Assembly (NCBI GenBank): GCA_964523525.1
Contig: CAZFYO010000003.1
Location: 92,911 to 156,910, forward strand
Reading direction: 5' to 3'
From: an uncultured Elusimicrobia bacterium
GTDB lineage: Bacteria; Elusimicrobiota; Elusimicrobia; 2-02-FULL-39-32
DNA length: 64,000 bases
Shown: positions 31,827 to 49,523 of the stretch, piece after piece
Numbering within the stretch: position 1 is the stretch's first letter
Layout: the number at the start of each line of letters is the position of its first letter
Notes under the pieces: generated by a model
What the model was told of the DNA's origin: nothing
Database searches by the model: none
What the model saw: the letters and a program-made list of their open reading frames with translations, nothing else
Translations under genes and position numbers: made by a program

Positions 31827-32228
31827 ATGACCAGCCCCAACACCAAGACTATTCTGATCGTAGATGACGACGAGTTCATCTGCCTCTTCATCAAAACCAT
31901 CCTTGAAAAAGACGGTTTCAACGTTGCCATCGCCTATAACGGCGAAGAGGCGCTGAAAACCATCGAAACCGCAAGCGTTGACCTGATTTTGCTCGACTGG
32001 ATGATGCCGGTCCTGAGCGGCTTCGACGTTCTTAAAAATTTACAGAACAACCAGGATAAAAGCAGGATCCCCGTGATGGTGGTGACGGCCAGCGTGACGG
32101 ACTCCGACACGGTTTCCTTTATTCGCAAGCAGATGAACGTCGTCGAGTTCATGCCCAAACCCATCGAACACGTCTACCTTTTGCAGCGCGTCCACGAAAC
32201 CTTGAAAACCCAGCCGGAGAAGGCCTGA
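31827..32228 (+). CDS. Stand-alone response-regulator receiver domain protein (CheY-like)
   Basis: Receiver motifs (ILIVDDDEF, LILLDWMMP, conserved Lys in MPKPI); first gene of a four-gene overlapping operon. Confidence 0.75.
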   Translation: MTSPNTKTILIVDDDEFICLFIKTILEKDGFNVAIAYNGEEALKTIETASVDLILLDWMMPVLSGFDVLKNLQNNQDKSRIPVMVVTASVTDSDTVSFIRKQMNVVEFMPKPIEHVYLLQRVHETLKTQPEKA

Positions 32229-32698
32229 TGGCCCTCAAAGATTCGCGCTGGGTGAAGAACGCCCTTTGGATCGCAAGTACCATTGCCATTCTTTACGGGA
32301 TGGTTTATGTTGATGTGATCCTGCGAGCGCGTGAATCCTACATGGAAGGCGAGAAGTATTGGCGCTGGAGCGAGCATCCGGAAGAAAAGTCGGCCGCCTT
32401 GGAGCAGGAGTTTAACAAGGAAAAGGCCGGGCTGGATGAAAAGCTGGCCAAAAACAAATTGACGAAAGACGAGTACGACCGCCGGCTGGAGATCGCGCAG
32501 TTTGACCGCGACCGCAGCCTGGACGAATCGTCCATCAAATACGCCTACGTCTGGTACAAGACCGCTTACGAGCTATTTTCTCCGCCCGAATCCAAATGGG
32601 TCCGGCTGTCCCGCGAAAAAGCCCCTCTCGCCAAGGAAAAGTGGCGCGAGGAACTGCGAGCCAGGAAAATTCCCTTCGAAGAATACATGTTGGATTAG
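32228..32698 (+). CDS. Hypothetical membrane-anchored protein
   Basis: ATG overlaps the preceding stop (ATGA-type coupling); one N-terminal TM helix then a charged coiled-coil-like region. Confidence 0.5.
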   Translation: MALKDSRWVKNALWIASTIAILYGMVYVDVILRARESYMEGEKYWRWSEHPEEKSAALEQEFNKEKAGLDEKLAKNKLTKDEYDRRLEIAQFDRDRSLDESSIKYAYVWYKTAYELFSPPESKWVRLSREKAPLAKEKWREELRARKIPFEEYMLD

Positions 32699-32701
32699 CG
32701 T

Positions 32702-34456
32702 TTGCGCGGACGCGCCGTTCTTCCGATTATTATCCTCCTTCCTCTCCTCTTACTCGCCGCAGCCGTCCGAATCCCGTACATTTACTATTGGGACGTTTTC
32801 TATAACGCCGATTACGCGTTGATGAACCTCGTGGGTTTGCACGCCATGCGGGGCGAGTTTTCCTTCTATCTTTGGGGTCAGAACTACCATGCGGCGGTCG
32901 AGCCCCTTTTGATGGCGCCGCTCTTCAGGATTTTCTCGCCCACGCCGATGGTGGCCGCCGTGATCCCCGCCGTTTTCTCGCTGCTCTTCCTGTTTTTGTA
33001 TCACCGCTATTTGACTCGCGTGACCGATACCTGGACCGCCGGGATTGCGACTCTGATTCTTTGCGTTCCCGCGCCCTTTTTTCTGTCCATCGCGTCGCGC
33101 AACGGAAATTACATCGAGATCTTGTGCCTGGGGATGATTCAGTTCCTGCTTTTTCAAAAGATCATGGAGGGCGACCGGCGTAAATCGCTTTTGCTTCTTT
33201 TCGGTCTGGCGGCGGGCTTTTCCTGGTTTTATCTGCGCCTCATCCTGATATTCTGGGCCGCGATGTTCCTGCATTGGCTTTCCCGGACGCTGGAGCCGCG
33301 CGACTATGACCGCGCCCGCCGGTTCGTAACGTCGCTTTCGCCTTCCATTTTCTGGAACCGCCTGATCTTGCTGCGGGGAGTGGAAGTTCATCCCTGGCTG
33401 CGCATCCCGCTTGCGGTACTCAACATCTATAACCTCGGGAATTTCCTGCTGTCTGCGATTCTCTGGTTTCACGGACCTTACATCCGGATGATCGGGTCCA
33501 CCAAACTGAGCCTGGATTTCTGGCCGCTGCTGGAATCTTCGATTAAGATGACGGTCGCGGCGCTTTTCCTCGTCCATTGGCGCGCACTGCTCGACCGGGC
33601 CAAGGCGGCCTGGCGCGATCCCGTGCTCCGGATGCTTCCCATTGGATTTTTGATCGGCTATTCACCGGCGATCATCGGGATGTTTTTCGGCGAGTTTCCC
33701 GATTCGCGGAACGGGATCGCGAATGCGGCGGAGCTGATCCGCAACTTCAAGCTGGTCGGGGCGTCGCTCCTGCCGATGTTCGCCGGGGAGGGAACGATCT
33801 TGCCGCTCCGGCTGTTCGCCGTCGCCGCGTCGGGGCTGGCGCTGCTGTATTTTTTCCGCGAATTCTTTTCGTCCCTATCCGGCGTGATGGCGCTCGACCA
33901 GAAAACTCCCGACTATTTTCCTCTGCTCTGCCTGGGCGCGGTCACCTTTTTGCTGGGCATCAGCTATGACCGGCTCATCGATCCGTCGACTCTGCGCTAC
34001 TTTTTTCCGCTCTTTTTGTGTCTCCCGGTCGGCCTCGCCTGGATTTTGAAGCGCTTTCAACCGCTGCTGCGCTGGGGAATCTACGGTCTGCTGGCCCTAT
34101 TTCTAGCGAACAGTGTCGATGCGAACATGGAAGCGCTCCGCCGCCATGAAGATCCGCTCCCGCAGCAGGTTCTGGCGGACCGGCTGATCGAGCAGGGCGT
34201 GACGGGAGGTTATTCCAACTACTGGCTGGCCTATTATGTGACGTTCATCAGCCAGGAGAAGCTCATTTTGGTTTCAACGGAGGATCAGGATCGGTACGTG
34301 CCGCATTTGGAGTTTGTGCGAGGGTTGGAGCGTCCGGTATTTGTGGGGGAACCGCATCCGGGTTCCGGAACCGAAGTTACGATTAAAGGGACGCATTATC
34401 GTGTGACCCATTCTGAAACCATCGCCGGGACAGCGGTCGCTTATCTTGAGAAATGA
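32702..34456 (+). CDS. Large polytopic membrane protein (possible GT-C-like glycosyltransferase; function uncertain)
   Basis: 584 aa with more than ten hydrophobic helices and a large periplasmic-like C-terminal domain; the glycosyltransferase call is an architecture-based guess only. Confidence 0.6.
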   Translation: MRGRAVLPIIILLPLLLLAAAVRIPYIYYWDVFYNADYALMNLVGLHAMRGEFSFYLWGQNYHAAVEPLLMAPLFRIFSPTPMVAAVIPAVFSLLFLFLYHRYLTRVTDTWTAGIATLILCVPAPFFLSIASRNGNYIEILCLGMIQFLLFQKIMEGDRRKSLLLLFGLAAGFSWFYLRLILIFWAAMFLHWLSRTLEPRDYDRARRFVTSLSPSIFWNRLILLRGVEVHPWLRIPLAVLNIYNLGNFLLSAILWFHGPYIRMIGSTKLSLDFWPLLESSIKMTVAALFLVHWRALLDRAKAAWRDPVLRMLPIGFLIGYSPAIIGMFFGEFPDSRNGIANAAELIRNFKLVGASLLPMFAGEGTILPLRLFAVAASGLALLYFFREFFSSLSGVMALDQKTPDYFPLLCLGAVTFLLGISYDRLIDPSTLRYFFPLFLCLPVGLAWILKRFQPLLRWGIYGLLALFLANSVDANMEALRRHEDPLPQQVLADRLIEQGVTGGYSNYWLAYYVTFISQEKLILVSTEDQDRYVPHLEFVRGLERPVFVGEPHPGSGTEVTIKGTHYRVTHSETIAGTAVAYLEK

Positions 34457-35160
34457 AAAAGTTTACCTGGGGTCTCATCCTCCTGCCTTTTGGTCTCGCT
34501 ACTTTTTACGAATTGCCTGCGCTCCTATTCGTTTTGCGCGCGCAGGTGCCGCCCCTGATGTGGCTGGCCGGGGGAGCGGTCGCCTACTGCGCGTTTGAAG
34601 TCATTTTCAGCCGGCCGATGCGGACTTATGTTTTCGGCCACGAGCTGACGCACGCCATCGCCGGTCTCGCCGTCGGGAGCAAAATCCATTCGTTCAAGGT
34701 TTCGAAGAAGGGCGGCAGCGTCACCATGTCCAAATCCAATTTCGTGATCGCCCTGGCGCCCTATTGCGTTCCTCTTTACACGTTCGGCGCGCTCGCGCTT
34801 TATGCGGGGCTGAGCTATTTTTATCCGCTTCCCTATTTGTCAGAAGGCGCGCAGTTTCTGGTCGGCGCCACGCTCGCGTTTCACGTCTCGCTGACGCTGT
34901 ACGCAGTCCAGCAGCGCCAGCCCGACATCCACAAGACGGGACTGTTTTTCTCCGCGATTTTCATTCTGATGATCAACGCCTGGGTTCTCGTTGGCTTGGC
35001 CAAAATTCTGTTCTGGAACGACGTTTCCCTGCGGGATTTTGCGATGCGGACGCTCCGGACGCAGAACGAAATATGGGTCTGGTCCGCGCACCGCGCTTAT
35101 GAGGGCGTGATGTGGGGGTTCAGCTCGTTGAAGTCTTTGAAGGTTCCGTCGGCTCACTGA
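34453..35160 (+). CDS. Integral membrane protein with HExxH motif (putative intramembrane metalloprotease-like)
   Basis: HELTH motif at the edge of a TM helix (YVFGHELTHAIAGL); overlaps the upstream stop by 4 nt. Confidence 0.55.
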   Translation: MKKFTWGLILLPFGLATFYELPALLFVLRAQVPPLMWLAGGAVAYCAFEVIFSRPMRTYVFGHELTHAIAGLAVGSKIHSFKVSKKGGSVTMSKSNFVIALAPYCVPLYTFGALALYAGLSYFYPLPYLSEGAQFLVGATLAFHVSLTLYAVQQRQPDIHKTGLFFSAIFILMINAWVLVGLAKILFWNDVSLRDFAMRTLRTQNEIWVWSAHRAYEGVMWGFSSLKSLKVPSAH

Positions 35161-36101
35161 CCCTGGGCGGCGGGTTTTTTCCTGAAGCGGGTCGTGAGTT
35201 TTTGCCACAGGCCGGGTTTGACCGGAGCGGCGGGCACGGCGAGCGCGGACGGCGCCGGCGGGTTGAGAATTAATTTTTTATCCTGATAAGACATCAGTTC
35301 AGATACGCGCGATTCGCCGTTGGCCGTTCCCACCGAAGCTAAAACAAATCCTACATCCGGCGCGTAATATTCCAGCTTCCAGCTTTCATCTTCCGGCGCG
35401 TTCTGGATCCGCAGCTTGAGGCAATGCGTGAATTCTCCGGCCTGGATCGCCACGGTCTCGTCGTCGCCTTCGATTTTGAACAGCGTTTTCTTTCCGTCCC
35501 GGATTGTTTCCCATTGCTTCCCCGGCTCGATGGGAAACGAGAGGATCGCGGCGGCCGCGGCGGAGCCGAGCGGATACTCGTTGACCCCGTTGCCAGTTTT
35601 TTCGTAAATCCTTTCGAACGTGCTCACGATCCGGTCCCCGGCATAGATCGTCCGCTTCATCCTAAAGCGCCCGGCGGGCTGGGCCAGCGCTTCCAGCCGG
35701 TCTTCGGTCTGCATGTATTTCCCGCCGCTCTGCGAATCGCCCGTCCTGCGGACGAAATCCGGCTGCAACGGAAAATAGTCGGGGCAATGAGCGAGGGCTT
35801 TCTGGGCCAGGCCGGACCAGGACGTTCCGGGGTGCCGCGCGGAAACCTCGGCGTAAAACGCGCGCGCTTTGGGGTAATCGCGGAAGACGGTCCGGTAAAT
35901 CTCGGCGGAGCGGTACCGCGCCTCCGCTGCGCCGGAGGGATCCTGCGCGATCTTCTTTTCGTAAGAGGCGAGCGCCGATGGATATCGTCCCAGCCGCTCC
36001 ATCCGTTTCGCTTCGGCCAGAGAATCTTTCCCGCAGGCGGAAAATAACGGCAAAGCGCAGGATAAAAATACAAAAATCGCTAAAATTCGGGGGTTCATCA
36101 T
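35154..36101 (-). CDS. Lipoprotein with TPR-like N-terminal region
   Basis: Signal peptide with lipobox (LFSAC) then TPR-like repeats; 315 aa. Confidence 0.6.
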   Translation of the reverse strand: MMNPRILAIFVFLSCALPLFSACGKDSLAEAKRMERLGRYPSALASYEKKIAQDPSGAAEARYRSAEIYRTVFRDYPKARAFYAEVSARHPGTSWSGLAQKALAHCPDYFPLQPDFVRRTGDSQSGGKYMQTEDRLEALAQPAGRFRMKRTIYAGDRIVSTFERIYEKTGNGVNEYPLGSAAAAAILSFPIEPGKQWETIRDGKKTLFKIEGDDETVAIQAGEFTHCLKLRIQNAPEDESWKLEYYAPDVGFVLASVGTANGESRVSELMSYQDKKLILNPPAPSALAVPAAPVKPGLWQKLTTRFRKKPAAQGQ

Positions 36102-36244
36102 TCCATGTCCCTGGAAATCTCTTTTCGGACGGAGTCTTTGGATTTATTGCGGCGGTACAACTTGTCGCTTTCCTTAACTTTGGTGGCGGGTTTGGTCTTC
36201 CAGGTCCGGCGCACCTTGATGGCGCGCTTTTTGTTTCTTGGCAT
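36098..36244 (-). CDS. Candidate small basic protein (48 aa, MPRNKKRAIKVRRTWKTKPATKVKESDKLYRRNKSKDSVRKEISRDME)
   Basis: Not in the ORF track (below length cutoff). ATG at 36244; TGA overlaps the ATG of the downstream lipoprotein gene. Overlaps the 3' end of the VanZ-like ORF in another frame, so only one of the two readings can be fully correct. Confidence 0.25.
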   Translation of the reverse strand: MPRNKKRAIKVRRTWKTKPATKVKESDKLYRRNKSKDSVRKEISRDME

Positions 36245-36554
36245 TTCTTAGATCATAATAAAAACCGATCATGGCTCCAAGAGAATCGATGAACACGTCG
36301 CGGATGGTTCCCGTGCGGCCGAAAACGAAGGATTGGTGCCACTCGTCGCCGGCGGCGTAAAGGACGACAAGGACGAAGCTCAGGAGGAAATGCCAGCGCC
36401 AGAAATCCGGCCGGGTCTTTTGGACCGCTCCGTGGATCAGAACGAACAAAACGGCATACTCCAAAAGATGGGCGATCTTGCGGGCAACGAAATTGAGGGC
36501 GCCCAGCCAGCTGTCCAGTTCGCGGTAGGGCCCGTAGTCCGGCCGGGACGACAT
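36174..36554 (-). CDS. VanZ-family membrane protein
   Basis: VanZ-like hydrophobic core (…HLLEYAVLFVLIHGA…LYAAGDEWHQSFVFGRTGTIRDVFIDSLGAMIG); the C-terminal 20-25 codons overlap the small basic ORF and may be over-extended. Confidence 0.6.
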   Translation of the reverse strand: MSSRPDYGPYRELDSWLGALNFVARKIAHLLEYAVLFVLIHGAVQKTRPDFWRWHFLLSFVLVVLYAAGDEWHQSFVFGRTGTIRDVFIDSLGAMIGFYYDLRNAKKQKARHQGAPDLEDQTRHQS

Positions 36555-36622
36555 ATAAAATATCAGGCAGCACCAGGCGAGCGCCTTGATCCAGGCGATA
36601 AGGAGGTCCTGTTTCGGGGAGG

Positions 36623-37102
36623 TCAGTTGACGGCGGCGCGGCGCGCCTGGGGATTGAGGCGCCGCATGATTTTGGCTTTACGTTCTTCGGAGGTGGCGGG
36701 CCAGGCAAAATGTTCGGGAACATCGAGAGGAATCGTGATCGTCATGCCGGCCTCGAGGTGGTCGAAATCGCCGATCTTTTCCTCGTTGGCCTTCCAGATG
36801 TCGTACCAGCGGCGTCCCGCGCCGAAATGTTCCGGCATCTTGGCGATTTTCCAAAAAGTGTCGCCCTTTTGAACGGTGTAGTTGACGGGGACGGGCAGAG
36901 CCGCTTGCGCGGAGGGGGAAGCCGGCCGCGACGCGCTATCGGTCGAGGAGGCCACGGTTTCGGACTGACGCTGTTCTTCCATCCGCAGGGCTTCTTCCCT
37001 GAGCTTTATCTCTTTCTTCTTCTGCTTGAAATAATAATGGCCCGAAAACGCGAGCGCGCACATCAGGAAAAGTCCGAGCAGGTGCAGTTTTGTAATTCTC
37101 AT
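36623..37102 (-). CDS. LysM-domain protein, membrane-anchored
   Basis: N-terminal TM helix; LysM motif (YTVQKGDTFWKIAK…WKANEEKIGDFDHLEAGMTITIP). Confidence 0.7.
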   Translation of the reverse strand: MRITKLHLLGLFLMCALAFSGHYYFKQKKKEIKLREEALRMEEQRQSETVASSTDSASRPASPSAQAALPVPVNYTVQKGDTFWKIAKMPEHFGAGRRWYDIWKANEEKIGDFDHLEAGMTITIPLDVPEHFAWPATSEERKAKIMRRLNPQARRAAVN

Positions 37103-37132
37103 CTCTAAATTCTGTTTTCTCCGTGCCTCGGA

Positions 37133-38248
37133 TTATCTTACAACATTTTCCTTGGACAGTTTTTCGCTGACTTGAATTCCCATCCGGATGCTGTCCGCCA
37201 AACCCTTGAAAATGACGGCCACGATATAGATGATGAGGCCGACGAGCAGCGAACCGAAGACCGCGAAGATAAAATTTTGCGTGATGAAGCTGATGAACAC
37301 AACCACCGCCATGACGACGCCCGTGGTCGCGGAGAGCCAGGAAAGATACTGGAACGCGTTGGAAATGAGTTCCAGGCCGCGGAAGGGCGTGACGGTGATC
37401 TGATCGCGGGTCGCGGCCACCTGAAGCGCCGCGCCACAGGTCGCGCAGTACCAGGCGCGGAGGCCGTTTTCCGACTGGCAGTGGTCGCAGACCTTCTTGC
37501 TGCTTTCGCCGAGCTGTCGCCGTTTGAATATGTAGAGTTTTTCGGCGATGCCGAGCACGAACCATTGCAGAACGCCTACCACGCCGCCCGCGCAAAGCTC
37601 GAGGCTGCGTCCCACGGCCCAGGACAGGTTCTCGCGGCCGTGAATCTCGATCAGCATCGCGCCGTACATCTGCGCTCCCACTCCGCCGCCCAGCATCCCG
37701 CCGACGAGTCCGCCGATGGTTCCGGCCAGAATTTTGCTCTTCGTGCCTTCCAGGATGCCGCTGGTGAGCCCCAGCATCGCGCCGGCGATGCCCCAGGCGC
37801 CCGCCATGGAGAAAGAATAGCTGTAGAGATAACCGGTAAAAATTTGTTTGAAGTGCGGGTATGAAAGGCTGCCGAGAAGCCCGCCCAACGCGCCCAGGAT
37901 ACCGCCGAGAAAACATTTGTAGGTGGATCGCTCGATCATGCCGCCGACGGTGCCGATGAAACAGCCGGCGACCGCGGTGGAAAGGGGAATTTGTCCGGGA
38001 AAATAGTCCAGCGTGCGGGCGAAGGCGTCGGTGGAGACGCTTTCAAACTGCAGAGTGCGCGCGATGGCGATGGCGACCGTGCATCCGACCGCTCCCGCGG
38101 AGAATCCGCTGAGCGCGCGGCGCGCCACCCAGCCGAAATTACCGATGACCTTCGCGACCTGGATGCTGCGTTGGTTGATGGCGATGCCGCAATGCGTGCA
38201 ATGCGCCGGACGGTCTGCTAAGGACTCGCTGCAGCTAGGACAGATCAA
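37133..38248 (-). CDS. Membrane protein with two zinc-ribbon motifs and Gly-rich helices
   Basis: CPSC…CTHC at the N-terminus and CDHC…CATC internally, separated by Gly-rich hydrophobic segments; 371 aa. Confidence 0.6.
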   Translation of the reverse strand: MICPSCSESLADRPAHCTHCGIAINQRSIQVAKVIGNFGWVARRALSGFSAGAVGCTVAIAIARTLQFESVSTDAFARTLDYFPGQIPLSTAVAGCFIGTVGGMIERSTYKCFLGGILGALGGLLGSLSYPHFKQIFTGYLYSYSFSMAGAWGIAGAMLGLTSGILEGTKSKILAGTIGGLVGGMLGGGVGAQMYGAMLIEIHGRENLSWAVGRSLELCAGGVVGVLQWFVLGIAEKLYIFKRRQLGESSKKVCDHCQSENGLRAWYCATCGAALQVAATRDQITVTPFRGLELISNAFQYLSWLSATTGVVMAVVVFISFITQNFIFAVFGSLLVGLIIYIVAVIFKGLADSIRMGIQVSEKLSKENVVR

Positions 38249-38263
38249 TGGTTCGGCTGAAGA

Positions 38264-38527
38264 TCACTTCTTGCCGGCGGTTAAGGAAAGAATCTCGATG
38301 AGGGTGCAGACGGTGCGGAGGGTGGCGATGTGAATTTCGTCCGTCGGGGCTTCGTTGAAAATAGCCTGATTGATCTGGGAGGATTCCTGATCGAAGTTTC
38401 TGCGAAAATCCTTCAGGGATTTTGAGGAGTCGTCGTATTGCGCCCGGTTTTCTTCGACGCTTTTTTTAATCTGGTCCAAGATCGACGATAAATCCTTCCC
38501 GTTCATCGTTCCGTTGGAAGCTGCCAT
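38264..38527 (-). CDS. Hypothetical small protein (87 aa)
   Basis: ORF between the BatD-like gene and the zinc-ribbon membrane gene on the same strand; no family recognised. Confidence 0.4.
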   Translation of the reverse strand: MAASNGTMNGKDLSSILDQIKKSVEENRAQYDDSSKSLKDFRRNFDQESSQINQAIFNEAPTDEIHIATLRTVCTLIEILSLTAGKK

Positions 38528-38580
38528 GATTTGAATATATCAAATTCATTTTCTGTTATCAACGAAAAATGACGATTTGA

Positions 38581-41226
38581 TCAGATTTTCTCGAACGCGT
38601 TCTTCCCGATCCACCCGCGCACGCCGGCTTTGGGGATGCCGATCTCGGTCCATTCCGCGTCGTCGCGCTCGTTTAAAATCAGGACGCGGCGGCCTTCTGG
38701 AACGGTGAAGCCGACGCGGAACCTCTGGCCGGGGCCGGAGCGCACTTCCGCGCTTTGCTGGGTGATCACGGCTTCGGTTTGAACCTGTTCGCGGTAAACC
38801 CGCCCGATCCACCAGGCGCCGATCATTATGAAAAACGCCAGCGCCAGAAAAGCCCTGGCGCGGAAGAGCGAGTTTCCGGAAAATAAAATCAAAGTCCAGT
38901 AGATGCAAAGTCCCCAGAATGACATGAGATAGAGGATCGAAAGCTGGTTCAAATTGAGGATGTGAGCCGCGCGATAAAGCATGCGAGTCAAAAACGATTC
39001 CGGCTCGAAGGTTTCGCCAGTTTGAACGCCGACGAGCTGGAGATTGCTTTTTAGATCGGCGTCTGCCGGCTTCATGCGCCGCGCTCTTAACCAATGGGCG
39101 ATGGCCTTTCCGTTCATCCCCAATTTCTGATAGGTGTTGCCCAAATTGTATTCGACGGCAAAGTTTGGTCCGGTTTCCATCGCAAGCGATTCGTAAAGCG
39201 CCCGGGCATTTTCGAATTGGCCGGATTGATAATAATTGTTAGCTTCTTTGAAGGCATCGGCGGGGCTTTGCGCAGAGTTTTGTGATTGCGCGATTGTTGC
39301 ACCTGCTGCAATCAGCAACGGGATGAAAAACGGAAGCAGTATTGCCGCAAGCCGGTTAGATTTTTTCTTATCGCCTCCCTTCGCGACGGACTTCATGCTT
39401 TTTCGCAGTTCGGAGTCGATTTCTTCGATCAAATTTCGCGCTTCGCCCAGCAAACGGTCCGCGTCCTGTGTGCGGAATTGGGCTGGCGCGTAGCTGGCGA
39501 GCTCAAATTCGCTCCAGATTTTCTGCAGGCGCGATTTAAGCGTGGCCGCGGTTCCCGGGATTGCTGCGTGAGCTTCCAGAAACGCCGCAACGCTTTTTGA
39601 AGAGAGCGATGTTTCGCGCGACAGCATTTTATCGGCAAAATAGTCCTGAAACGCCTGGAAAATCCGGCCCGTTGCGTCTGCATCCTGCGTCCGGATCGAC
39701 TTAACCGCCGCATTCCATTTCCCGAGCGCCCCGCTCGCGCGTCTCCGCTCCGGATCCCGCGCGATCCAGGCCAATCTCACCCGGCGCCCGATGCCCGCCA
39801 GCAGTCCGAGCGCCGGCAGGAGGTGCAGAATTAAAAACAGCGGCGTTTTGTTCAGCCATCGGAAAGGTTTCAGCTCGCCTTCCTGCTTGATGTAGCTGAT
39901 CTCGCGGCTGACATTGGCGATCTGCGGCGCCATCGATCCGGGCCCGATCGCAAAGGTCTGCGATTTGCCCGGCGCCACTTCAATGGACAGCGCCTGCGTG
40001 GTCAGCGTCTTGTAGGATTTTCCGGGCAGATTAAAATAGCTGAATTTAATCGGCGCGATGTTGTGCGTGCCCGAAGTCTGCGGCACGAGCACGATCTTGT
40101 AAACCTTTGATCCCTCAACAAACCCCTTGGACTTCTCGATGTTCAGAGAACTCGCGGTATCGTATTTGCGGAAGCCGTCGAACTCGGGGAAAACAGGATC
40201 GCCCAAAGCCTTGATGTTGCCCTTGCCGCTGATCGTGAGCGTCAGGGTCAAGGGTTCGCCGACGGACGCTTTGCGTTTGTCGGCCATGATCGCAACGTTG
40301 AATTCGCCGACGCCGCCCGAAAATCCGTCCGGCTTTCCGGAGGGAAGGGGAACCGCGGTTAATTTGGCGGGATCGGACTTCAGCATATACTCCCGCGCGC
40401 CGCCGCCGAAAAACTGCTGGAAAATATCTTCCTGCGATCCGCTGAAATCCTGCACCGCGATTTTCAGCTGCGCGGGAGAAAGCGTTAAAGCGCCGTCGCG
40501 CGCGGGAAAAAGCGCGGTTTTGATTTCGGTGACATTATAAGGAACGCCGCCCACGCTTTCCGTAAAATTGCGCGGCGGCGGAAGGTCTTCGGTCAAAAAC
40601 CCGGAAGTGTCGGGCGGCTGGTAGTTTGGATTTGCGACCATGCGAACGCGGTAATAAAAACGGAACGCCATCGTGACCTGCTCATTGACGTACGCTTTCG
40701 GTTTGTCCAGGGATAGTTTCACGAACGCTCCAGGCGCCTGGCGGTTTCCCTGCGCGGCATTCCCCTGCGCTCCACCGGCTGCGGGAGCGGGCGCAGCCTG
40801 ACCCGCGGGCACGACTTCGATCGCGATGGGTTGAGACTGGGCCGTTTTGCCGTCCAACGTCGCGCTGAAAGGCCCGATCGTGAATTTGCCCAGGCTCTTC
40901 GGGGAAAGCATATAGGTGAAGTTCACTGACGAAGACATTTTTCCGTTTACGAATGACACATTTTGCGCCTGTCCGGAGGGGTAGACGGAAAATGCGGAAA
41001 GGTCGGGCATCTGCGGCTGGGGCATGCTCGCCGCGTCTCCCGCGATGGTCACGAGCAGCCGGACGGAATCGTTCAGAGCGACCTGCGTCTTGTCGGCGCT
41101 CGCCGATACCGTGAGATCCGCGGAAGCGCGCGCGGTCAGCGCGCAGGCGAGCAGAGCGGATGCGCAGGCCGCGCTAAAAATTTTTCCGAATGCGCGTTGG
41201 TTCAATTTACCAGTCTTCGTCATCAT
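38581..41226 (-). CDS. BatD-like oxygen-tolerance family protein fused to TPR and a C-terminal SH3-like domain
   Basis: 881 aa: signal peptide, BatD-like repeated beta-rich region, TM helix, TPR-like segment (ANNYYQSGQFENARALYESLA…), further TM helices and a C-terminal SH3b-like tail; last gene of the MoxR-DUF58-VWA operon. Confidence 0.7.
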   Translation of the reverse strand: MMTKTGKLNQRAFGKIFSAACASALLACALTARASADLTVSASADKTQVALNDSVRLLVTIAGDAASMPQPQMPDLSAFSVYPSGQAQNVSFVNGKMSSSVNFTYMLSPKSLGKFTIGPFSATLDGKTAQSQPIAIEVVPAGQAAPAPAAGGAQGNAAQGNRQAPGAFVKLSLDKPKAYVNEQVTMAFRFYYRVRMVANPNYQPPDTSGFLTEDLPPPRNFTESVGGVPYNVTEIKTALFPARDGALTLSPAQLKIAVQDFSGSQEDIFQQFFGGGAREYMLKSDPAKLTAVPLPSGKPDGFSGGVGEFNVAIMADKRKASVGEPLTLTLTISGKGNIKALGDPVFPEFDGFRKYDTASSLNIEKSKGFVEGSKVYKIVLVPQTSGTHNIAPIKFSYFNLPGKSYKTLTTQALSIEVAPGKSQTFAIGPGSMAPQIANVSREISYIKQEGELKPFRWLNKTPLFLILHLLPALGLLAGIGRRVRLAWIARDPERRRASGALGKWNAAVKSIRTQDADATGRIFQAFQDYFADKMLSRETSLSSKSVAAFLEAHAAIPGTAATLKSRLQKIWSEFELASYAPAQFRTQDADRLLGEARNLIEEIDSELRKSMKSVAKGGDKKKSNRLAAILLPFFIPLLIAAGATIAQSQNSAQSPADAFKEANNYYQSGQFENARALYESLAMETGPNFAVEYNLGNTYQKLGMNGKAIAHWLRARRMKPADADLKSNLQLVGVQTGETFEPESFLTRMLYRAAHILNLNQLSILYLMSFWGLCIYWTLILFSGNSLFRARAFLALAFFIMIGAWWIGRVYREQVQTEAVITQQSAEVRSGPGQRFRVGFTVPEGRRVLILNERDDAEWTEIGIPKAGVRGWIGKNAFEKI

Positions 41227-42868
41227 CCTTCTTCTTGTTTTTGTTCTTGGGGTCCGGCTTGAAAATTGGTTTGTCGCCGTTATCGCCCGCCGCGCTCTTC
41301 AAAACGCGCTTTGCGTTCTCTGCTTTGTCCTTTTTTTTGTCATCTTCTTTCGCTTGCCCGCCCTGCCCCTGTTTTTGGTCCTTATTTTTATCATTCTGCT
41401 TGTTCTGATGTTGTTGCTGCGGCGGGTTGCGCATATATTGCAGTGACAGCTTCAAATTGTGGCGCGCATCCGCATCGTAAGGGCTCAGCTTGAGGCTTTG
41501 CTTGTAGGCTTCGGCCGCTTCCTGATATTTTCCCTGCTGAAAATATGAATTCGCCAGATTGTACAGCGACTGCGCGCTCAAGCCCCGGCTGCTGCCGATG
41601 GCGCTCTTTTGAAACTCTTCCTGCGCCCCTTCAAAATTGTTCATTTTGTAGAGCGCCCCGCCCCGGTTGAAGTTCGCGCGCCGGTCGGAAGGCTTTTCCT
41701 TTTGCGCTTCATTGTAACTTTCCGCGGCCTCCGAATACATCCCTTCATCGTACTGCTGGCCGCCCCGGCGCATTTTGTCGCGGAATCCGGCGGCGTCCGA
41801 ATTCGAGGGAAGCATCGTGAATCCAAGGCCGAACAGAATCAGAAGAGCGGTAATTGCGGAAAATCCAGACGGTTTTTTGCGCGGCAGATAGGCCAGCGAT
41901 TCGGCGCTAATCAGGCAAAGGAGGCCGATCAAAAGGAACCATTGATAGCGATTTTCATAAACGTTTTTGCGTTGCGTGAGCGTATTGCCGCCGCCATGCA
42001 GTTGATCGGCCAGCAAATCGATTTCGGATTCGGCGTCCGAGGCGCGGTAGTAAGAGCCGCCGGTTTCCGTGGCAATTTTGGCGAGGGTCGCTTCGTCCAG
42101 GCGGCTCAGCACGACTTCGCCGTTCTTTTGCTTGCGATAACCCGTCACGCTGCCGCTTCCATCGCGGATCGGAATGGGTTCTCCCTCCGGATTGCCGATA
42201 CCGATCGCGAAAATACGGATGTCCTGCTCCTTGGCTTCCTTCGCCGCGCCTTCGGGGTCGGATTTGTGGTCCTCGCCGTCGGTCAGGAGCACGATGGATC
42301 CCGAGCCGCGCTCGCCGCCCATGCGCTCGAGGGCGAGGCGGATCGCGGTGCCGATGTGCGTCCCCGGCTGCGGCACCATGCCGGGCTCGATGCCTTTCAG
42401 AAATTGCTTGGCGGTGGATAGATCAAACGTCATCGGGCAGTAAACGTAGGCTTCGCCGGCAAACGCGATGATGCCGACGCGGTTGCCATGCATCTTTTCC
42501 AGCAGCCCGGTGAGCATGCGCTTGGATTTCTCAAGGCGGGTGGGCTTAAAGTCCTCGGCCAGCATGGAGTCCGAGCAATCAAAGAGGATAAAGACGTTGC
42601 CGCCTTTAATCGTGATGGTTTCAAGTTTCTGTCCGACCTCGGGACCGGCCAACGCGAGGACGACAAAGAAGAGCCCGGCAGCAAGCAACGCATACTGGGT
42701 GAGCGTTCGGGAGCGCCAGGCGGCGAATGGGAAAACCTTTTCGATCAGCCCGAAGTCTATCAAGCCGCGCAGCGCGCCGCTCCGCGACTTTACGCTCCAG
42801 AGCAGCGCTCCGAAGAGCAATGCCAGGGGAATCAGCCAGAAGAATTGCGAGGAATGCGCGAGGTCCAT
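41207..42868 (-). CDS. VWA-domain protein with TPR repeat and charged low-complexity tail (BatB-like)
   Basis: N-terminal TM helices, VWA MIDAS motif (DCSDSM), TPR (YNLANSYFQQGKYQEAAEAYKQSLKLSP), C-terminal K/D/N/Q-rich tail. Confidence 0.8.
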   Translation of the reverse strand: MDLAHSSQFFWLIPLALLFGALLWSVKSRSGALRGLIDFGLIEKVFPFAAWRSRTLTQYALLAAGLFFVVLALAGPEVGQKLETITIKGGNVFILFDCSDSMLAEDFKPTRLEKSKRMLTGLLEKMHGNRVGIIAFAGEAYVYCPMTFDLSTAKQFLKGIEPGMVPQPGTHIGTAIRLALERMGGERGSGSIVLLTDGEDHKSDPEGAAKEAKEQDIRIFAIGIGNPEGEPIPIRDGSGSVTGYRKQKNGEVVLSRLDEATLAKIATETGGSYYRASDAESEIDLLADQLHGGGNTLTQRKNVYENRYQWFLLIGLLCLISAESLAYLPRKKPSGFSAITALLILFGLGFTMLPSNSDAAGFRDKMRRGGQQYDEGMYSEAAESYNEAQKEKPSDRRANFNRGGALYKMNNFEGAQEEFQKSAIGSSRGLSAQSLYNLANSYFQQGKYQEAAEAYKQSLKLSPYDADARHNLKLSLQYMRNPPQQQHQNKQNDKNKDQKQGQGGQAKEDDKKKDKAENAKRVLKSAAGDNGDKPIFKPDPKNKNKKKDDDEDW

Positions 42869-42869
42869 G

Positions 42870-43856
42870 TCAGGGCACCGTCTTCCAGACCGTGGCTTCG
42901 AGCAGCGCGGCCGTAAAAATGCAAGCCATCGCCGCGATCAGCAGGCCGAGATATGCATCGTGAACTTTGGAAGTGGACTCAATGTCAATTTTGGTCTTTT
43001 CCATCGCATCGATCTCGTTATAAATCTCCTTAAAACGTTTGGCGCTGGTGACGCGGAAATATTTGGCGTTCGTCACGCGGGAAATTTCGAGCAGGGTCGT
43101 TTCGTCCAGATCTTCCGCCATTTGGACGAGGCGTTTTCCAAAAACGGGGTCTTCAACCGGAACGACGCCGCCGCCCGGCACCGCGGTTCCGATCGCATAG
43201 ATTTTGATACCTAAATCTTTCGCCGCGTTCGCCGCCGTGACCGGATCGATGTTCCCAACGTTGCTCCGCCCGTCCGTCAGCAGAATCACAATTTTCGTTT
43301 TCGCTTCGCTTTGCGACAGCAGGTTCGCGGATGCGGCCAGCGCCGTTCCAATTGCGGTCCCATCCGTCTGCGTCGCGTTCATCGGAATCGTCTTCAGAAA
43401 ATCCCGCAGCGTTTCGTGGTCCAGCGTCAGCGGGCATTGCACAATCGCCCTGCCGCCGAACACCACGAGTCCGATGCGGTCGTAAAGCCTCTTGCTGATG
43501 AACTCATCGGCCGCCTTCTTCGCCTGATCGAGCCGGTTCTGCGGATCAAAGTCCAGCGCCGACATGCTCATGGACGTGTCGAGGCAGAGCACAATGTCCA
43601 CCACCGGTTTGGGCGGCTCGTTCATCTTCGATACCGTTTGTGGCCGCGCCAGCGCGACAATCATCAGCGAAAATGCCACGAGCTTCAACACGTCCAAAAT
43701 CACCTCTTCCTTATGATAAGAAACCGCATGGGCCTTCACGAGCGAAAGGTCGGAATAGGTGAGCGCGGGTTTGTTTCGGCGCGCGGTAAAAATCCACCAG
43801 GCCCAGAGCGCCAGGGGAATGAACGTTAAAAACCATTCGGGATTAGCCCACCGCAT
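42870..43856 (-). CDS. VWA-domain membrane protein (BatA-like)
   Basis: Two N-terminal TM helices, VWA MIDAS motif (DTSMSM), C-terminal TM helix. Confidence 0.8.
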   Translation of the reverse strand: MRWANPEWFLTFIPLALWAWWIFTARRNKPALTYSDLSLVKAHAVSYHKEEVILDVLKLVAFSLMIVALARPQTVSKMNEPPKPVVDIVLCLDTSMSMSALDFDPQNRLDQAKKAADEFISKRLYDRIGLVVFGGRAIVQCPLTLDHETLRDFLKTIPMNATQTDGTAIGTALAASANLLSQSEAKTKIVILLTDGRSNVGNIDPVTAANAAKDLGIKIYAIGTAVPGGGVVPVEDPVFGKRLVQMAEDLDETTLLEISRVTNAKYFRVTSAKRFKEIYNEIDAMEKTKIDIESTSKVHDAYLGLLIAAMACIFTAALLEATVWKTVP

Positions 43857-44766
43857 GGGTTTTCCTCACGAAGTCCTGAATTTTGGCGAAGTCGTCCTCA
43901 ATTTCCTTGGCGGACGGCGCGAATTTGGCGAACTTTACCAGATCGCATTGGGATAGCAGGTCTTTTGATTCCAGATTAAGCCGTCGATCGACATTCGCAT
44001 TCTTCATGGCCGAATAAATTTCCGACGTGGTTTTCTCGAGGCTGTCGAAATTAAACCGCTTTCCCAGATATTCGCGGAAGATGTCGGAGAGCGCCGCATA
44101 AAACTCCTTTAATTGGCCGGAAGATTGATAGGCGGCGCGCGCGGCCTCCAGTTTTTCCAAAATCACTTGATCGAGCGGGCGCGGCGGTTCGGGCGGCGTA
44201 ACCATTTCGGGGGTCGCTAACTGGCGCTGGCGGCGGTAATGGATCACGGCGGCAATCCCGGCCAAAACCAGCGCCGCAACAATCCAGGGCCAGATGGGGC
44301 CGAAGCGGATCGGCTCTTTGATATCGCGCAAACCTTCCTGCGGAGCGCCGGGCGTGGGCGCCGCCGCGGGCGCGACCGTGATTTTAACCGGCGGCGATTG
44401 AATGAAGCCCGATCCACCCTTCCCTTTATAAGGAATGGAGAGGCTCGGAATGTCGAACGTCCCTTCGCCGAGCGGCAGGATGTCGATCTGAATCATCGAT
44501 GCCCACTGCCCGCCGGATTCTTTGAAAGGTGCGGTCTTGGCGCGGAGAAATTGCAGGTCTTCGATGGAGGGGAGCGCGACGCTGGAAATCGAAATGTCCT
44601 GATTGGATGTGATGTAAATGTTCAGGCCCGCCGGATCCGCGACCGCGAGCGTCGTGGAGGGCAACACCTCATTCCGCACGGAAAATATTGCCTCTGCCCT
44701 AGCCGCGTCAGGCGAACCTATCGCGCAAAAAATACCGGCGACCCAAAGAATTGCGGATAGCTTCAT
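43843..44766 (-). CDS. Hypothetical secreted/membrane protein of the MoxR operon (DUF4381-like position)
   Basis: Signal peptide, Pro-rich linker, one TM helix; sits between DUF58 and VWA genes as in Bat-type operons. Confidence 0.55.
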   Translation of the reverse strand: MKLSAILWVAGIFCAIGSPDAARAEAIFSVRNEVLPSTTLAVADPAGLNIYITSNQDISISSVALPSIEDLQFLRAKTAPFKESGGQWASMIQIDILPLGEGTFDIPSLSIPYKGKGGSGFIQSPPVKITVAPAAAPTPGAPQEGLRDIKEPIRFGPIWPWIVAALVLAGIAAVIHYRRQRQLATPEMVTPPEPPRPLDQVILEKLEAARAAYQSSGQLKEFYAALSDIFREYLGKRFNFDSLEKTTSEIYSAMKNANVDRRLNLESKDLLSQCDLVKFAKFAPSAKEIEDDFAKIQDFVRKTHAVG

Positions 44767-44768
44767 GG

Positions 44769-45671
44769 TTAGCGCTGTCGCTTAGCGCGTTTGCGGAAAA
44801 ACGCGAGCATCTGCTTTACGTAGGATTCCCCGGTCTGAAGCTCAATGACATCAATATTGAGCTTCTCGATGCCGCGCTTCCAGTTTGAGAAGCGCCGCTC
44901 GTTGTCGGATTTCATTTTTGAGAGATCTGCGGCGGAGAGACGGACGAGCGCGGGTTGACCCGTCTCGGCGTCGCGGAAACGGAACCGTCCGGGTACCGGA
45001 ACTTGCGCTTCCATCGGGTCTCCGATCCGCAGAGCAATCACGTCATGCTTCTTCGAGAGGCCGCGGAGCGCGCTCTCGTAATTAAAGGGAGACAGAAAAT
45101 CGGAGATCAAAAAGCAGACCGCACGCCGCTTGATCACTTTGCCGAGGAACTCGAGGCCCGCGCCAATGCTAGTGGCGTTTCCTTGCGGACGGAACGTCAA
45201 AATTTCGCGCACGAGACGCAAAATGGAGCGGGAACCCTTGGCGGGCGGAATATATTTTTCGACGGTATCGGTGAAGATCAGCAGGCCGACCTTATCATTG
45301 TTGCGGATGGCGGAGAAGGAGAGGAGCGCGGCGATTTCTGCGGCGATTTCGGATTTCAGATTACCGCGGCTGCCGAAGAACAGGCTGCGGGATGCGTCGA
45401 TCAGGATAAGAACCGTGAGTTCGCGCTCTTCCAGAAACTCTTTCGTGAAAAGCCCGCCGGACGAACGCGCCGTAACGTTCCAATCAATCTGTTTGGGATC
45501 ATCCCCCGGTTGATATTCCCGCACCTGCGCGAACTGCATGCCGCGCCCTTTGAAAATGCTGGAATATTGCCCCGAAAAAATCTCGTTGACGAGTTTCCGC
45601 GTGCGGATCTCGATGCCGCGGACTTGTTTCAGGACTCCTTCGGGAATGGAGCGGGTGGGGCTTTGAAGCAT
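44769..45671 (-). CDS. DUF58-domain protein (MoxR-associated, VWA-like fold)
   Basis: DUF58 signature region (…EYQPGDDPKQIDWNVTARS…LTVLILIDASRS…). Confidence 0.8.
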   Translation of the reverse strand: MLQSPTRSIPEGVLKQVRGIEIRTRKLVNEIFSGQYSSIFKGRGMQFAQVREYQPGDDPKQIDWNVTARSSGGLFTKEFLEERELTVLILIDASRSLFFGSRGNLKSEIAAEIAALLSFSAIRNNDKVGLLIFTDTVEKYIPPAKGSRSILRLVREILTFRPQGNATSIGAGLEFLGKVIKRRAVCFLISDFLSPFNYESALRGLSKKHDVIALRIGDPMEAQVPVPGRFRFRDAETGQPALVRLSAADLSKMKSDNERRFSNWKRGIEKLNIDVIELQTGESYVKQMLAFFRKRAKRQR

Positions 45672-45696
45672 GGCGGCTTCGCGCGGGCCCGAAAGG

Positions 45697-46686
45697 TTAC
45701 GGAACTTCGACCGCGTTAAAAATCGTCTTAACGATCTCTTCCGAGGTGGTTTCTTCCGCCTCGGCTTCGTAGGTGGGGATCACCCGGTGGCGCAGGACGT
45801 CGGGTCCGACCGCTTTCACGTCTTCGGGCGTCACATAGCCGCGTCCCTGCAGGAACGCGAAGGCCTTGGCGGCCTGCGTCAGGTAAATCGTGGCGCGCGG
45901 CGACGCTCCATAAAGAATCAGCTTCTTCAAATCCGCGACCTTGAAGTCTTCGGGCTGGCGCGTCGCGATCACGAGATCGAGAATGTAATTCTTGATCTTA
46001 TCATCGATATAAATCTGCTTGATGGACTGGCGCGCGTTCAGGATTTCCTGCGGCGAGACGACGGACTTGGCGGAAGGCAGCCCGGCCTGCGTCATGCGGT
46101 TCAGGATTTCGCTTTCTTCCGCGCGGGAGGGATAAGTGACTTTCAGCTTCAGCATGAAGCGGTCGATCTGCGCTTCAGGCAGCGGATACGTGCCTTCCTG
46201 CTCGATCGGGTTCTGCGTGGCGAGCACCAGGAACAGCTCCGGCAGGGCATGCGACGTGTCGCCGATTGTTACCTGTTTTTCCTGCATCGCTTCGAGCAAA
46301 GCGGATTGCACTTTGGCGGGCGCTCGGTTGATTTCATCGGCCAGCAACAGGTGCGTGAAGATGGGCCCCTTGCGCATCGTAAACTCCTGCGTCTTCGGGC
46401 TGAAAATCATAGTGCCGATGAGGTCGGCCGGCAGCAGGTCCGGCGTAAACTGGATGCGTTTGAACTCCGTCTGAATCGCGCTCGCCAGGGTTTTAATCGT
46501 TAACGTCTTCGCCAGGCCCGGGACGCCCTCGAGCAGGATATGCCCGCCCGCGAACAGTCCCACCAAAATTTTTTCGATCAGCTCATCCTGTCCCACCACC
46601 ACTTTAGCCAGCTCATTTTTGAGCGCGTGGATGAAGGCGCTTTCCTTCTGAATCTTCTCATGAATTTGCTTGATGTCGTTATCCAT
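45697..46686 (-). CDS. MoxR-family AAA+ ATPase
   Basis: Walker A (GVPGLAKT), Walker B (LLADEINRA) and MoxR-family length (329 aa); perfect SD AGGAGG upstream. Confidence 0.9.
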   Translation of the reverse strand: MDNDIKQIHEKIQKESAFIHALKNELAKVVVGQDELIEKILVGLFAGGHILLEGVPGLAKTLTIKTLASAIQTEFKRIQFTPDLLPADLIGTMIFSPKTQEFTMRKGPIFTHLLLADEINRAPAKVQSALLEAMQEKQVTIGDTSHALPELFLVLATQNPIEQEGTYPLPEAQIDRFMLKLKVTYPSRAEESEILNRMTQAGLPSAKSVVSPQEILNARQSIKQIYIDDKIKNYILDLVIATRQPEDFKVADLKKLILYGASPRATIYLTQAAKAFAFLQGRGYVTPEDVKAVGPDVLRHRVIPTYEAEAEETTSEEIVKTIFNAVEVP

Positions 46687-48217: not shown

Positions 48218-48286
48218 GAGAATAAATATATATCATTTTTTGCTGCACCGTGATAGAATATGCCGAACGTGCGGGGGCGCGAAAAT

Positions 48287-49354: not shown

Positions 49355-49406
49355 TCCGTTGAAGCCGCCCTCGGGCTTTGGTATCATATAAGACAACAGG
49401 TTGAAT

Positions 49407-49479
49407 GTGCCCGTAGCTCAGTTGGTAGAGCACTCGACTTTTAATCGAGTTGTCGAGAGTTCGAATCTCTCCGGGCACA
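49407..49479 (+). tRNA. tRNA-Lys (anticodon UUU)
   Basis: Cloverleaf folded by hand: acceptor stem GTGCCCG/CGGGCAC, D-arm GCTC-AGTTGGTA-GAGC, anticodon stem-loop CTCGA-CTTTTAA-TCGAG, T-arm GAGAG-TTCGAAT-CTCTC, discriminator A; 73 nt. Confidence 0.85.
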
Positions 49480-49523
49480 CCCTTTAACCTTCCTCCTCCC
49501 CAAAGAAAAAAACGCGCAGGATA

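Follow-up and report, generated by a model that had tools for sequence, protein, structure and literature searches.

The 64-kb window considered here, that is, the whole stretch of DNA that was analysed, comes from an uncultured member of the Elusimicrobiota. On its minus strand, from position 46686 to 38581, it carries what we read, with a probability of about 0.82, as a canonical eight-gene Bat (Bacteroides aerotolerance-type) cluster cut to six open reading frames (ORFs) by two fusions, batB-batC and batD-batE, and the five genes that follow would form a separate, Elusimicrobia-specific block with a conserved promoter of its own that merely adjoins the cluster here. A preliminary description of the region had proposed a six-gene Bat-type layout (MoxR, DUF58, VWA, VWA plus TPR, BatD) at the head of eleven co-directional genes spanning 35154-46686. 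Profile searches bore out this layout, and all 11 minus-strand ORFs are present as described (11/11, with the same coordinates), although the co-directional run is really one of 13 genes, since two more, encoding endonuclease III (Nth) and a short-chain dehydrogenase (SDR), precede moxR. The lineage carries a standard Bat system, and the reading of the region as a Bat operon with a fusion is right but ordinary. The six genes, and the parts of the two fused ones, are as follows, with lengths in amino acids (aa) and profile matches given as E-values or bit scores.

45697-46686, minus strand: moxR, an MRP-type MoxR AAA+ ATPase, 329 aa (AAA_3 4.4e-66, AAA_lid_2 4.6e-23)
44769-45671, minus strand: DUF58 protein, 300 aa (DUF58 1.1e-67, 227.9 bits with a cutoff of 23.4; VWA_2 1.1e-14)
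43843-44766, minus strand: third gene, 307 aa (sub-threshold BatD 7.2e-4 and DUF4381 5.6e-3)
42870-43856, minus strand: batA, a membrane-anchored VWA protein, 328 aa (VWA 1.1e-22; BatA N-terminal domain 27.7 bits, cutoff 25.9; BatA_Lepto 3.5e-61)
42868-41207, minus strand: VWA plus TPR protein (BatBC), 553 aa (BatB_Lepto 2.4e-38 and BatC_Lepto 5.5e-25)
41879-42868, minus strand: BatB-derived part of BatBC, residues 1 to ~330 (BatB_Lepto 2.4e-38, VWA 1.8e-19)
41207-41878, minus strand: BatC-derived part of BatBC, residues ~331-553 (BatC_Lepto 5.5e-25, TPR_2 6e-16)
41226-38581, minus strand: BatDE protein, 881 aa (BatD 1.1e-45, 154.7 bits with a cutoff of 24.1; TPR_2 27.5 bits; SH3_3 3.6e-4)
39367-41226, minus strand: BatD-derived part of BatDE, residues 1 to ~620 (BatD, PF13584, 1.1e-45; AlphaFold2 (AF2) model)
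38581-39366, minus strand: BatE-derived part of BatDE, residues ~621-881 (alignment to stand-alone BatE, SH3_3 in homologues, AF2 model)

MoxR heads a tightly spaced run in the canonical order MoxR-DUF58-hypothetical-BatA-BatB-BatC-BatD-BatE. The distances inside the six Bat genes are 25, 2, -14, 1, and -20 nucleotides (nt) and the five downstream genes are preceded by gaps of 53, 15, 30, 68, and 72 nt, so that the spacing itself sorts the genes into two groups, the first six and the later five. Most of 80 Bat loci from other lineages, among them Zixibacteria, KSB1, Ignavibacteriota, Bacteroidota, Planctomycetota, and Omnitrophota, keep the same order wherever the contigs extend far enough. 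The nearest homologues with source names belong to the Elusimicrobiota, and the best species-representative locus is that of an Elusimicrobia metagenome-assembled genome (MAG).

The translation of moxR shows Walker A-like (GVPGLAKT) and Walker B-like (LLADE) motifs, the gene is preceded by a strong Shine-Dalgarno sequence (AAGGAGG), and the protein is 56-87% identical across all Bat loci. The DUF58 protein, presumed to be the cytoplasmic partner of MoxR, has a VWA-like core with the metal-ion-dependent adhesion site (MIDAS) motif DASRS, and hydrophobicity analysis revealed no transmembrane segments in it. In BatA, the MIDAS motif is DTSMS and a transmembrane segment lies at the C-terminus; the Leptospira-specific NCBIfam models that match it and its neighbor (BatA_Lepto 3.5e-61, BatB_Lepto 2.4e-38) score under their high curated cutoffs. 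The third gene, by sequence comparison, holds the position of the "hypothetical/DUF4381" gene of canonical Bat operons. Its product has a signal peptide, a periplasmic beta-rich domain, one transmembrane segment (~153-177), and a cytoplasmic helical tail; it reaches 17.4 bits for DUF4381 (cutoff 27.2) and 20.6 bits for the BatD domain (cutoff 24.1), its orthologue in locus L083 also matches DUF4381 weakly, and positional homologues with 21-38% identity occur in most of the 80 other-lineage loci. A pairwise comparison made to see whether it is a short BatD paralogue gave no significant similarity (E=0.18). Among the domain labels first given to these genes, MoxR, DUF58, BatA-type VWA, and VWA plus TPR stood, as did LysM and VanZ in the downstream block, whereas DUF4381 is weakly supported and the TPR of the last downstream gene, a putative lipoprotein, falls below Pfam thresholds.

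The 881-aa protein had been described as a "BatD-TPR-SH3 giant subunit". The merger is real, as the BatD match, an alignment to stand-alone BatE, and a modeled barrel indicate, and it can now be named more closely as batD-batE. The BatD part consists, by hydrophobicity and the AF2 model, of a signal peptide and three Ig/MG-like beta-sandwiches (residues 38-418), followed by a helix across the membrane (462-490) and a helical domain in the cytoplasm (492-618). After its former signal anchor (620-643), the BatE part runs through TPR helices (655-736, nt 39019-39264) and a transmembrane hairpin (759-815) to an SH3-like barrel (817-880, nt 38584-38778). Residues 666-881 align to the stand-alone BatE of the Elusimicrobia relative L089 with 35% identity (E=5e-35). 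The SH3_3 match is weak in the protein itself (3.6e-4), yet 13 of 15 aligned homologues match that family (best 1.6e-9), and the AF2 model places a confident small beta-barrel at residues 817-880. The TPR and SH3 tail is BatE. The model as a whole (predicted local distance difference test, pLDDT, 78.7) matched tandem Ig-like/MG arrays in a Foldseek search, namely FdeC, invasin-type adhesins, and alpha-2-macroglobulin, with low TM-scores; these matches confirm the domain class and give no functional lead. A sequence search of the PDB with the BatDE profile returned TPR proteins only, and no BatD homologue was found there. At the old BatE N-terminus (residues 621-650; 39277-39366, minus strand), a signal-peptide-like segment, RLAAILLPFFIPLLIAAGATIAQS, has been kept and is followed by an AQS-type motif, in a stretch of low pLDDT; cleavage there would give back two polypeptides.

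A second fusion, which had been labeled simply as VWA plus TPR, joins batB and batC in the 553-aa protein. In its BatB part, two transmembrane segments at the N-terminus are followed by a VWA domain, whose MIDAS motif is DCSDS, and then by a third such segment; its BatC part has a former signal anchor (335-353), TPR repeats (364-480), and a tail rich in K, D, Q, and N. A transmembrane pair (310-328 and 335-353) lies between the VWA and TPR domains. Residues 365-485 align to the stand-alone BatC of L089 (35% identity, E=8e-24). The tail itself (residues 485-553; 41207-41413, minus strand) is a long low-complexity stretch in which Lys, Asp, Gln, and Asn abound (QQQHQNKQNDKNKDQKQGQGG...KNKNKKKDDDEDW), and the end of its coding sequence shares 20 nt with the beginning of the BatDE gene.

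Two more distant Elusimicrobia relatives without the fusions, L088 and L089, have the full set of eight genes: MoxR, DUF58, a hypothetical protein of ~300 aa, BatA (328 aa), BatB (358 aa), BatC (213-246 aa, TPR), BatD (608-612 aa), and BatE (247-280 aa, TPR and SH3). Because the C-terminal parts of the two long proteins align with stand-alone BatE and BatC, the arrangement in the window amounts to a standard cluster with two end-to-end fusions.

Whether the fusion is specific to this lineage had been raised as a point for comparison, and it is not: neither fusion is unique to the lineage, and both recur as a documented phenomenon. A single batD-batE ORF is present in 12 of the 80 loci, themselves gathered by a genome scan with a BatE-TPR peptide pattern; these are one Elusimicrobia MAG and 11 Bacteroidales of the Prevotella/Segatella type, and a further locus, L017, was left out of the count because its single ORF encodes BatD alone. 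The 867-aa BatDE of the cultured Segatella copri H-2632 (L060) is collinear with the window protein from end to end (26% identity, E=1e-62). From the sequence comparison, the Bacteroidales batD-batE fusion is probably an event independent of the one in Elusimicrobia, since other Bacteroidota loci, the Endomicrobiales locus L006, and the Elusimicrobia loci L088 and L089 are unfused. The batB-batC fusion occurs in all six clade loci and, outside the clade, in five more (Endomicrobiales, Zixibacteria, Eisenbacteria, Bacteroidota, and Prevotellaceae). The Prevotellaceae MAG RUG12487 (L077) has both, with a BatB-BatC of ~546 aa and a BatD-BatE of ~886 aa, and has apparently converged on the same six-gene layout. 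Fusions of bat genes have already been published, batB-batC in Leptospira biflexa and others in Borrelia, Spirochaeta, and Francisella (Stewart et al., PMC3557215).

Both fusions appear to be topologically neutral, with membrane topology and domain placement as in the unfused system. Each junction is made of the last out-to-in helix of the upstream protein and the in-to-out signal anchor of the downstream protein, and this neutrality is probably why the fusions recur. Our topology assignment takes as its basis the experimentally determined topology of BB0173, the Borrelia BatA homologue, which sits in the inner membrane with its VWA domain in the periplasm (PMC5700661), and the AF2 model of BatDE agrees with it: signal peptide and beta-sandwiches, then a transmembrane helix, a helical domain, and a second transmembrane helix, then TPR, a transmembrane hairpin, and SH3. 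As "Rosetta-stone" hints, fusions that recur, probably independently, in Elusimicrobia, Prevotellaceae, Leptospira, and other lineages would indicate that BatB contacts BatC and that BatD contacts BatE, which is useful for modeling a complex that is structurally uncharacterized so far.

The second part of our reading concerns the five genes that follow BatDE, together with the element that heads them.

38534-38562, minus strand: sigma-70-type promoter-like element, TTGATA-17 nt-(TG)TATATT (consensus scan, 10/12 matches plus TG)
38264-38527, minus strand: 87-aa protein, first of the block (no significant family)
37133-38248, minus strand: polytopic zinc-ribbon membrane protein, 371 aa, TTG start (DZR 2.2e-5, sub-cutoff; CxxC motifs)
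36623-37102, minus strand: LysM protein, 159 aa, with an N-terminal membrane anchor at residues 3-21 (LysM 5.3e-8, 33.1 bits, cutoff 20.9)
36174-36554, minus strand: VanZ-family membrane protein, 126 aa from the first canonical start (VanZ 9.7e-15, vanZ_1 1.2e-21)
35154-36101, minus strand: putative lipoprotein, 315 aa, last of the block and convergent with the next gene (signal peptide ending in a lipobox-like LFSAC)

The promoter-like element lies between the BatDE stop and the 87-aa gene, and its core, TTTGATATATT, is unique within the window. In each of the eight block-carrying loci (8/8) the sequence TTTGATATA[T/G]T occurs once, just 5' of the first gene of the block (in the relatives at L002 3922-3932, L082 12479-12489, L084 7215-7225, L087 8337-8347, L091 9650-9660, L092 9978-9988, and L093 864-874), and it is absent from five comparison loci checked that lack the block. 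The aligned intergenic DNA has otherwise diverged, but A-TTTGATATA-T stays invariant in the eight loci, with TTG 17-18 nt upstream (TTG-17/18 nt-TTTGATATAKT). This invariance includes L091 and L092, where SDR instead of BatDE lies upstream. The -10 hexamer ends 6-9 nt (6 in the window) before the ATG of the 87-aa gene where the called start adjoins the element, namely in the window, L082, L084, and L091, and no Shine-Dalgarno sequence was found ahead of the 87-aa gene, unlike the AAGGAGG of moxR. A -10 so close to the ATG, together with this lack of a Shine-Dalgarno sequence, suggests that the block transcript may be leaderless or near-leaderless.

Judged by its distribution and by this element, the five-gene block appears to be a separate, Elusimicrobia-specific unit that merely adjoins the Bat cassette in this genome. 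The preliminary description had joined the two into one "envelope-associated supermodule", a single functional and co-transcribed envelope unit, and had raised the comparison of the appended genes with other Bat operons. Much about the region is in keeping with that proposal: all genes are co-directional, with gaps of 15-72 nt, no terminator was seen between BatDE and the block, all products are membrane or periplasmic, and the block follows Bat in the window, L082, L084/85, L093, L002, and L087. We nonetheless consider it improbable, as each of the two units also occurs by itself. L091 (Nth-SDR-96-aa gene-zinc-ribbon-LysM-RadC-VanZ-lipoprotein) and L092 (Nth-SDR-zinc-ribbon-LysM-PGI-VanZ-lipoprotein) have the block but not Bat, and L083 and L086 have a Bat cassette with unrelated opposite-strand genes, not the block, downstream. 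L083 and L091 share a sample (ERZ1761205) and are close in composition (GC 67.6% vs 66.3%, tetranucleotide r=0.99), so that they are probably one genome in which the Bat cassette is sited elsewhere, having moved. As for the appended genes being conserved companions of Bat, homologues of any of the five were not detected in the flanks of the 80 other-lineage loci, within the at most 10 kb per side that was available (many contigs being shorter). The invariant promoter-like element heads the block whatever gene lies upstream, and the Bat cassette begins exactly at the start of MoxR and ends exactly at the stop of BatDE. In relatives, housekeeping genes stand between LysM and VanZ, glucose-6-phosphate isomerase (PGI) at L082 14647-15960 and L092 11740-13095, and RadC at L091 11762-12421 and L093 2839-3498, which means that the block is not a tight operon everywhere. 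Since the equally close Nth and SDR genes are conserved neighbors as much as the block is, the adjacency reflects lineage synteny around a discrete six-gene cassette rather than function. A variant of the proposal, in which the block with its ATTTGATATAKT promoter would be an undescribed Elusimicrobia-specific envelope module working with the Bat complex, the partnership having been secondarily broken in a few genomes, we likewise hold to be a long shot; under it, the LysM protein could tie the SH3/TPR end of BatDE to peptidoglycan, and the frequent siting of the block right behind batDE would mark a true functional tie.

A different possibility is that the 13 genes from nth to the lipoprotein gene make up one long read-through unit whose parts are functionally unconnected, with the internal promoter topping up transcription. 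Terminator-like sites are at background level across the region (25 vs 22.9 expected) and the relevant intergenic gaps contain none, so that read-through from BatDE into the block is possible; the relatives showed no conserved promoter motif ahead of moxR, and in L082 and L086 only 11-15 nt separate the SDR stop from the start of MoxR. This possibility has some claim, but we regard it as unlikely, because so strongly conserved a promoter-like element implies independent initiation at the block, and because the 11-gene same-strand bat cluster of L. biflexa has independent promoters (PMC3557215). Artefacts of assembly or sequencing, such as a lost stop codon that joins separate genes, might be suspected behind the 881-aa and 553-aa ORFs, since the genes are separate in most lineages; we give this practically no credence, as identical ORFs are present in an independent assembly (Logan SRR16481186, L001), 12 more relatives from different samples (42-70% identity) have the full-length fusion with alignable junctions, and the BatBC fusion is in every clade locus. 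Very improbable, too, is a MoxR-VWA conflict or anti-phage system of the MoxR-vWA-beta-propeller ternary type. MoxR has a secondary match to the bpMoxR domain (2.5e-15), but its match to the MRP-type AAA_3 is far stronger (4.4e-66), no beta-propeller or effector gene was found in the cluster, and the genes are ordered as in Bat operons across phyla. A PADLOC scan matched defence families in none of the 10 proteins scanned (all but VanZ), and we rejected the anti-phage reading on this absence of matches.

Several observations weigh against our reading of a standard, fused Bat cassette with an unrelated neighbor. No terminator-like hairpin was seen between the BatDE stop and the promoter-like element, and in six of the eight distinct relatives with the block it comes directly after BatDE, which might be taken for a weak sign of linkage. 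The family assignment of the third gene is sub-threshold for DUF4381 and BatD alike, and the ratio of fused to unfused loci comes from a sample biased by the peptide pattern with which it was gathered. Any mechanism given for Bat complexes is an inference, and in L. biflexa the deletion of bat genes gave no oxidative-stress phenotype (PMC3557215).

From family knowledge and from MoxR-VWA precedents (NorQ/NorD, RavA/ViaA, CbbQ/O), a likely mode of working can be put forward. A cytoplasmic MoxR AAA+ hexamer would act with the VWA-like DUF58 protein, and together they would drive the assembly or remodelling of a periplasm-facing complex anchored in the inner membrane. This complex would comprise the VWA domains of BatA and BatB with their MIDAS motifs, the TPR scaffolds of the BatC and BatE parts, and the Ig-like ectodomains of BatD and of the third-gene product; its SH3b-type tail could bind the cell wall. 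The fusions would fix a 1:1 stoichiometry, suggesting BatB-BatC and BatD-BatE as direct neighbors. The complex would aid tolerance of envelope or oxidative stress. Stress phenotypes are known for moxR and batA mutants; the tie to oxidative or heat stress comes from other organisms only, namely B. fragilis, F. tularensis, and R. anatipestifer (PMC11834572), and does not hold for all (PMC3557215). MoxR/VWA pairs have been described as remodelling or metal-insertion chaperones (PMC9976466, PMC13036017).

Among known systems, eight-gene Bat operons have been described in Parapedobacter indicus (PMC7500135) and Riemerella anatipestifer (PMC11834572). The BatI operon of Bacteroides fragilis (batA-E with moxR, DUF58, and a hypothetical gene upstream) shares with the window its gene order and domain set (two MIDAS VWA proteins, TPR, BatD, and TPR with SH3); the window differs in having six ORFs instead of eight, through the two fusions, and in its uncultured host. 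The batABD cluster of L. biflexa (PMC3557215) shares the batB-batC fusion, a same-strand moxR, and a long co-directional run, but it is without BatE, and its downstream neighbor is htpG and not a zinc-ribbon/LysM/VanZ block. The BatD-BatE of S. copri H-2632 has the same end-to-end architecture at low sequence identity. In Borrelia burgdorferi, BB0170-BB0176 resemble the window in that MoxR is followed by DUF58 and membrane VWA proteins, but the fusion pattern is another one, and BB0172 has been reported as an outer-membrane integrin-binding protein. NorQ/NorD, RavA/ViaA, and CbbQ/CbbO (PMC9976466, PMC13036017, PMC10585395, PMC4660213) combine, like Bat, a MoxR-class AAA+ protein with a MIDAS VWA partner and are the only mechanistic precedent; they differ in belonging to other MoxR subfamilies, in having soluble VWA partners, and in acting on defined client enzymes, whereas Bat is without a known client.

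The block itself is a small orphan cluster, seen so far in Elusimicrobia-type sequences only, and with its unusually conserved, leaderless-looking promoter it could offer a handle on transcription signals in a barely cultured phylum. Homologues of the 87-aa protein, at 50-60% identity, are present in L082, L084, L091, and L093 and absent in L002, L087, and L092. The zinc-ribbon protein has the motifs CPSC...CTHC (residues 3-20) and CDHC...CATC (254-271) and glycine-rich helices; its family has 26 homologues among 5.8 billion clusters, and the few with a source name are Elusimicrobia or Endomicrobiales. It is better conserved than BatDE is in the same genomes (58% vs 44% identity in L082). Its AF2 model, a glycine-rich helical bundle (pLDDT 76), found no fold match in the PDB (best E=0.18). 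The lipoprotein has homologues in L082, L084, L091, L092, and L093; it has one weak TPR-like pair at residues 29-100 (TPR_19 4.7e-4 and TPR_16 6e-4, both sub-cutoff) and a C-terminal domain without a known family, and its PDB matches are designed TPRs only (4.5e-4). At vanZ, homology extends ~20 codons 5' of the first ATG/GTG/TTG (36555-36626, minus strand; LLIAWIKALAWCCLIFY) and covers the first transmembrane helix, and candidate starts are an in-frame CTG at 36626-36624 that overlaps the LysM stop (CTGA) or an ATC further downstream; the gene has either a non-canonical start or an N-terminal truncation.

The two genes upstream of the Bat cassette, on the same strand, are as follows.

48217-47582, minus strand: nth, encoding Nth, the start of the 13-gene run, with a gap of 46 nt to the SDR gene
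47535-46744, minus strand: SDR gene, directly 5' of moxR, with a gap of 57 nt

On the other side, a convergent plus-strand set at 31827-35160 encodes a response regulator, a 156-aa protein, a 584-aa protein without a family, and an M50B-like membrane protein. The set is kept beside the block in L084/L085, and a similar one lies beside the block in L091, showing that lineage synteny reaches well past the Bat and block region. The sole match to Rfam or ARAGORN in the window is a tRNA-Lys (anticodon UUU) at 49406-49482 on the plus strand; the Rfam scan of the whole window gave this one tRNA only, with no riboswitch or small RNA found in the region. Upstream of nth (48218-48247, minus strand), the sequence TGATATATAT resembles an extended -10 and stands 8 nt before an ATG that has no Shine-Dalgarno sequence, making it a second leaderless-looking start, one that heads the 13-gene run.

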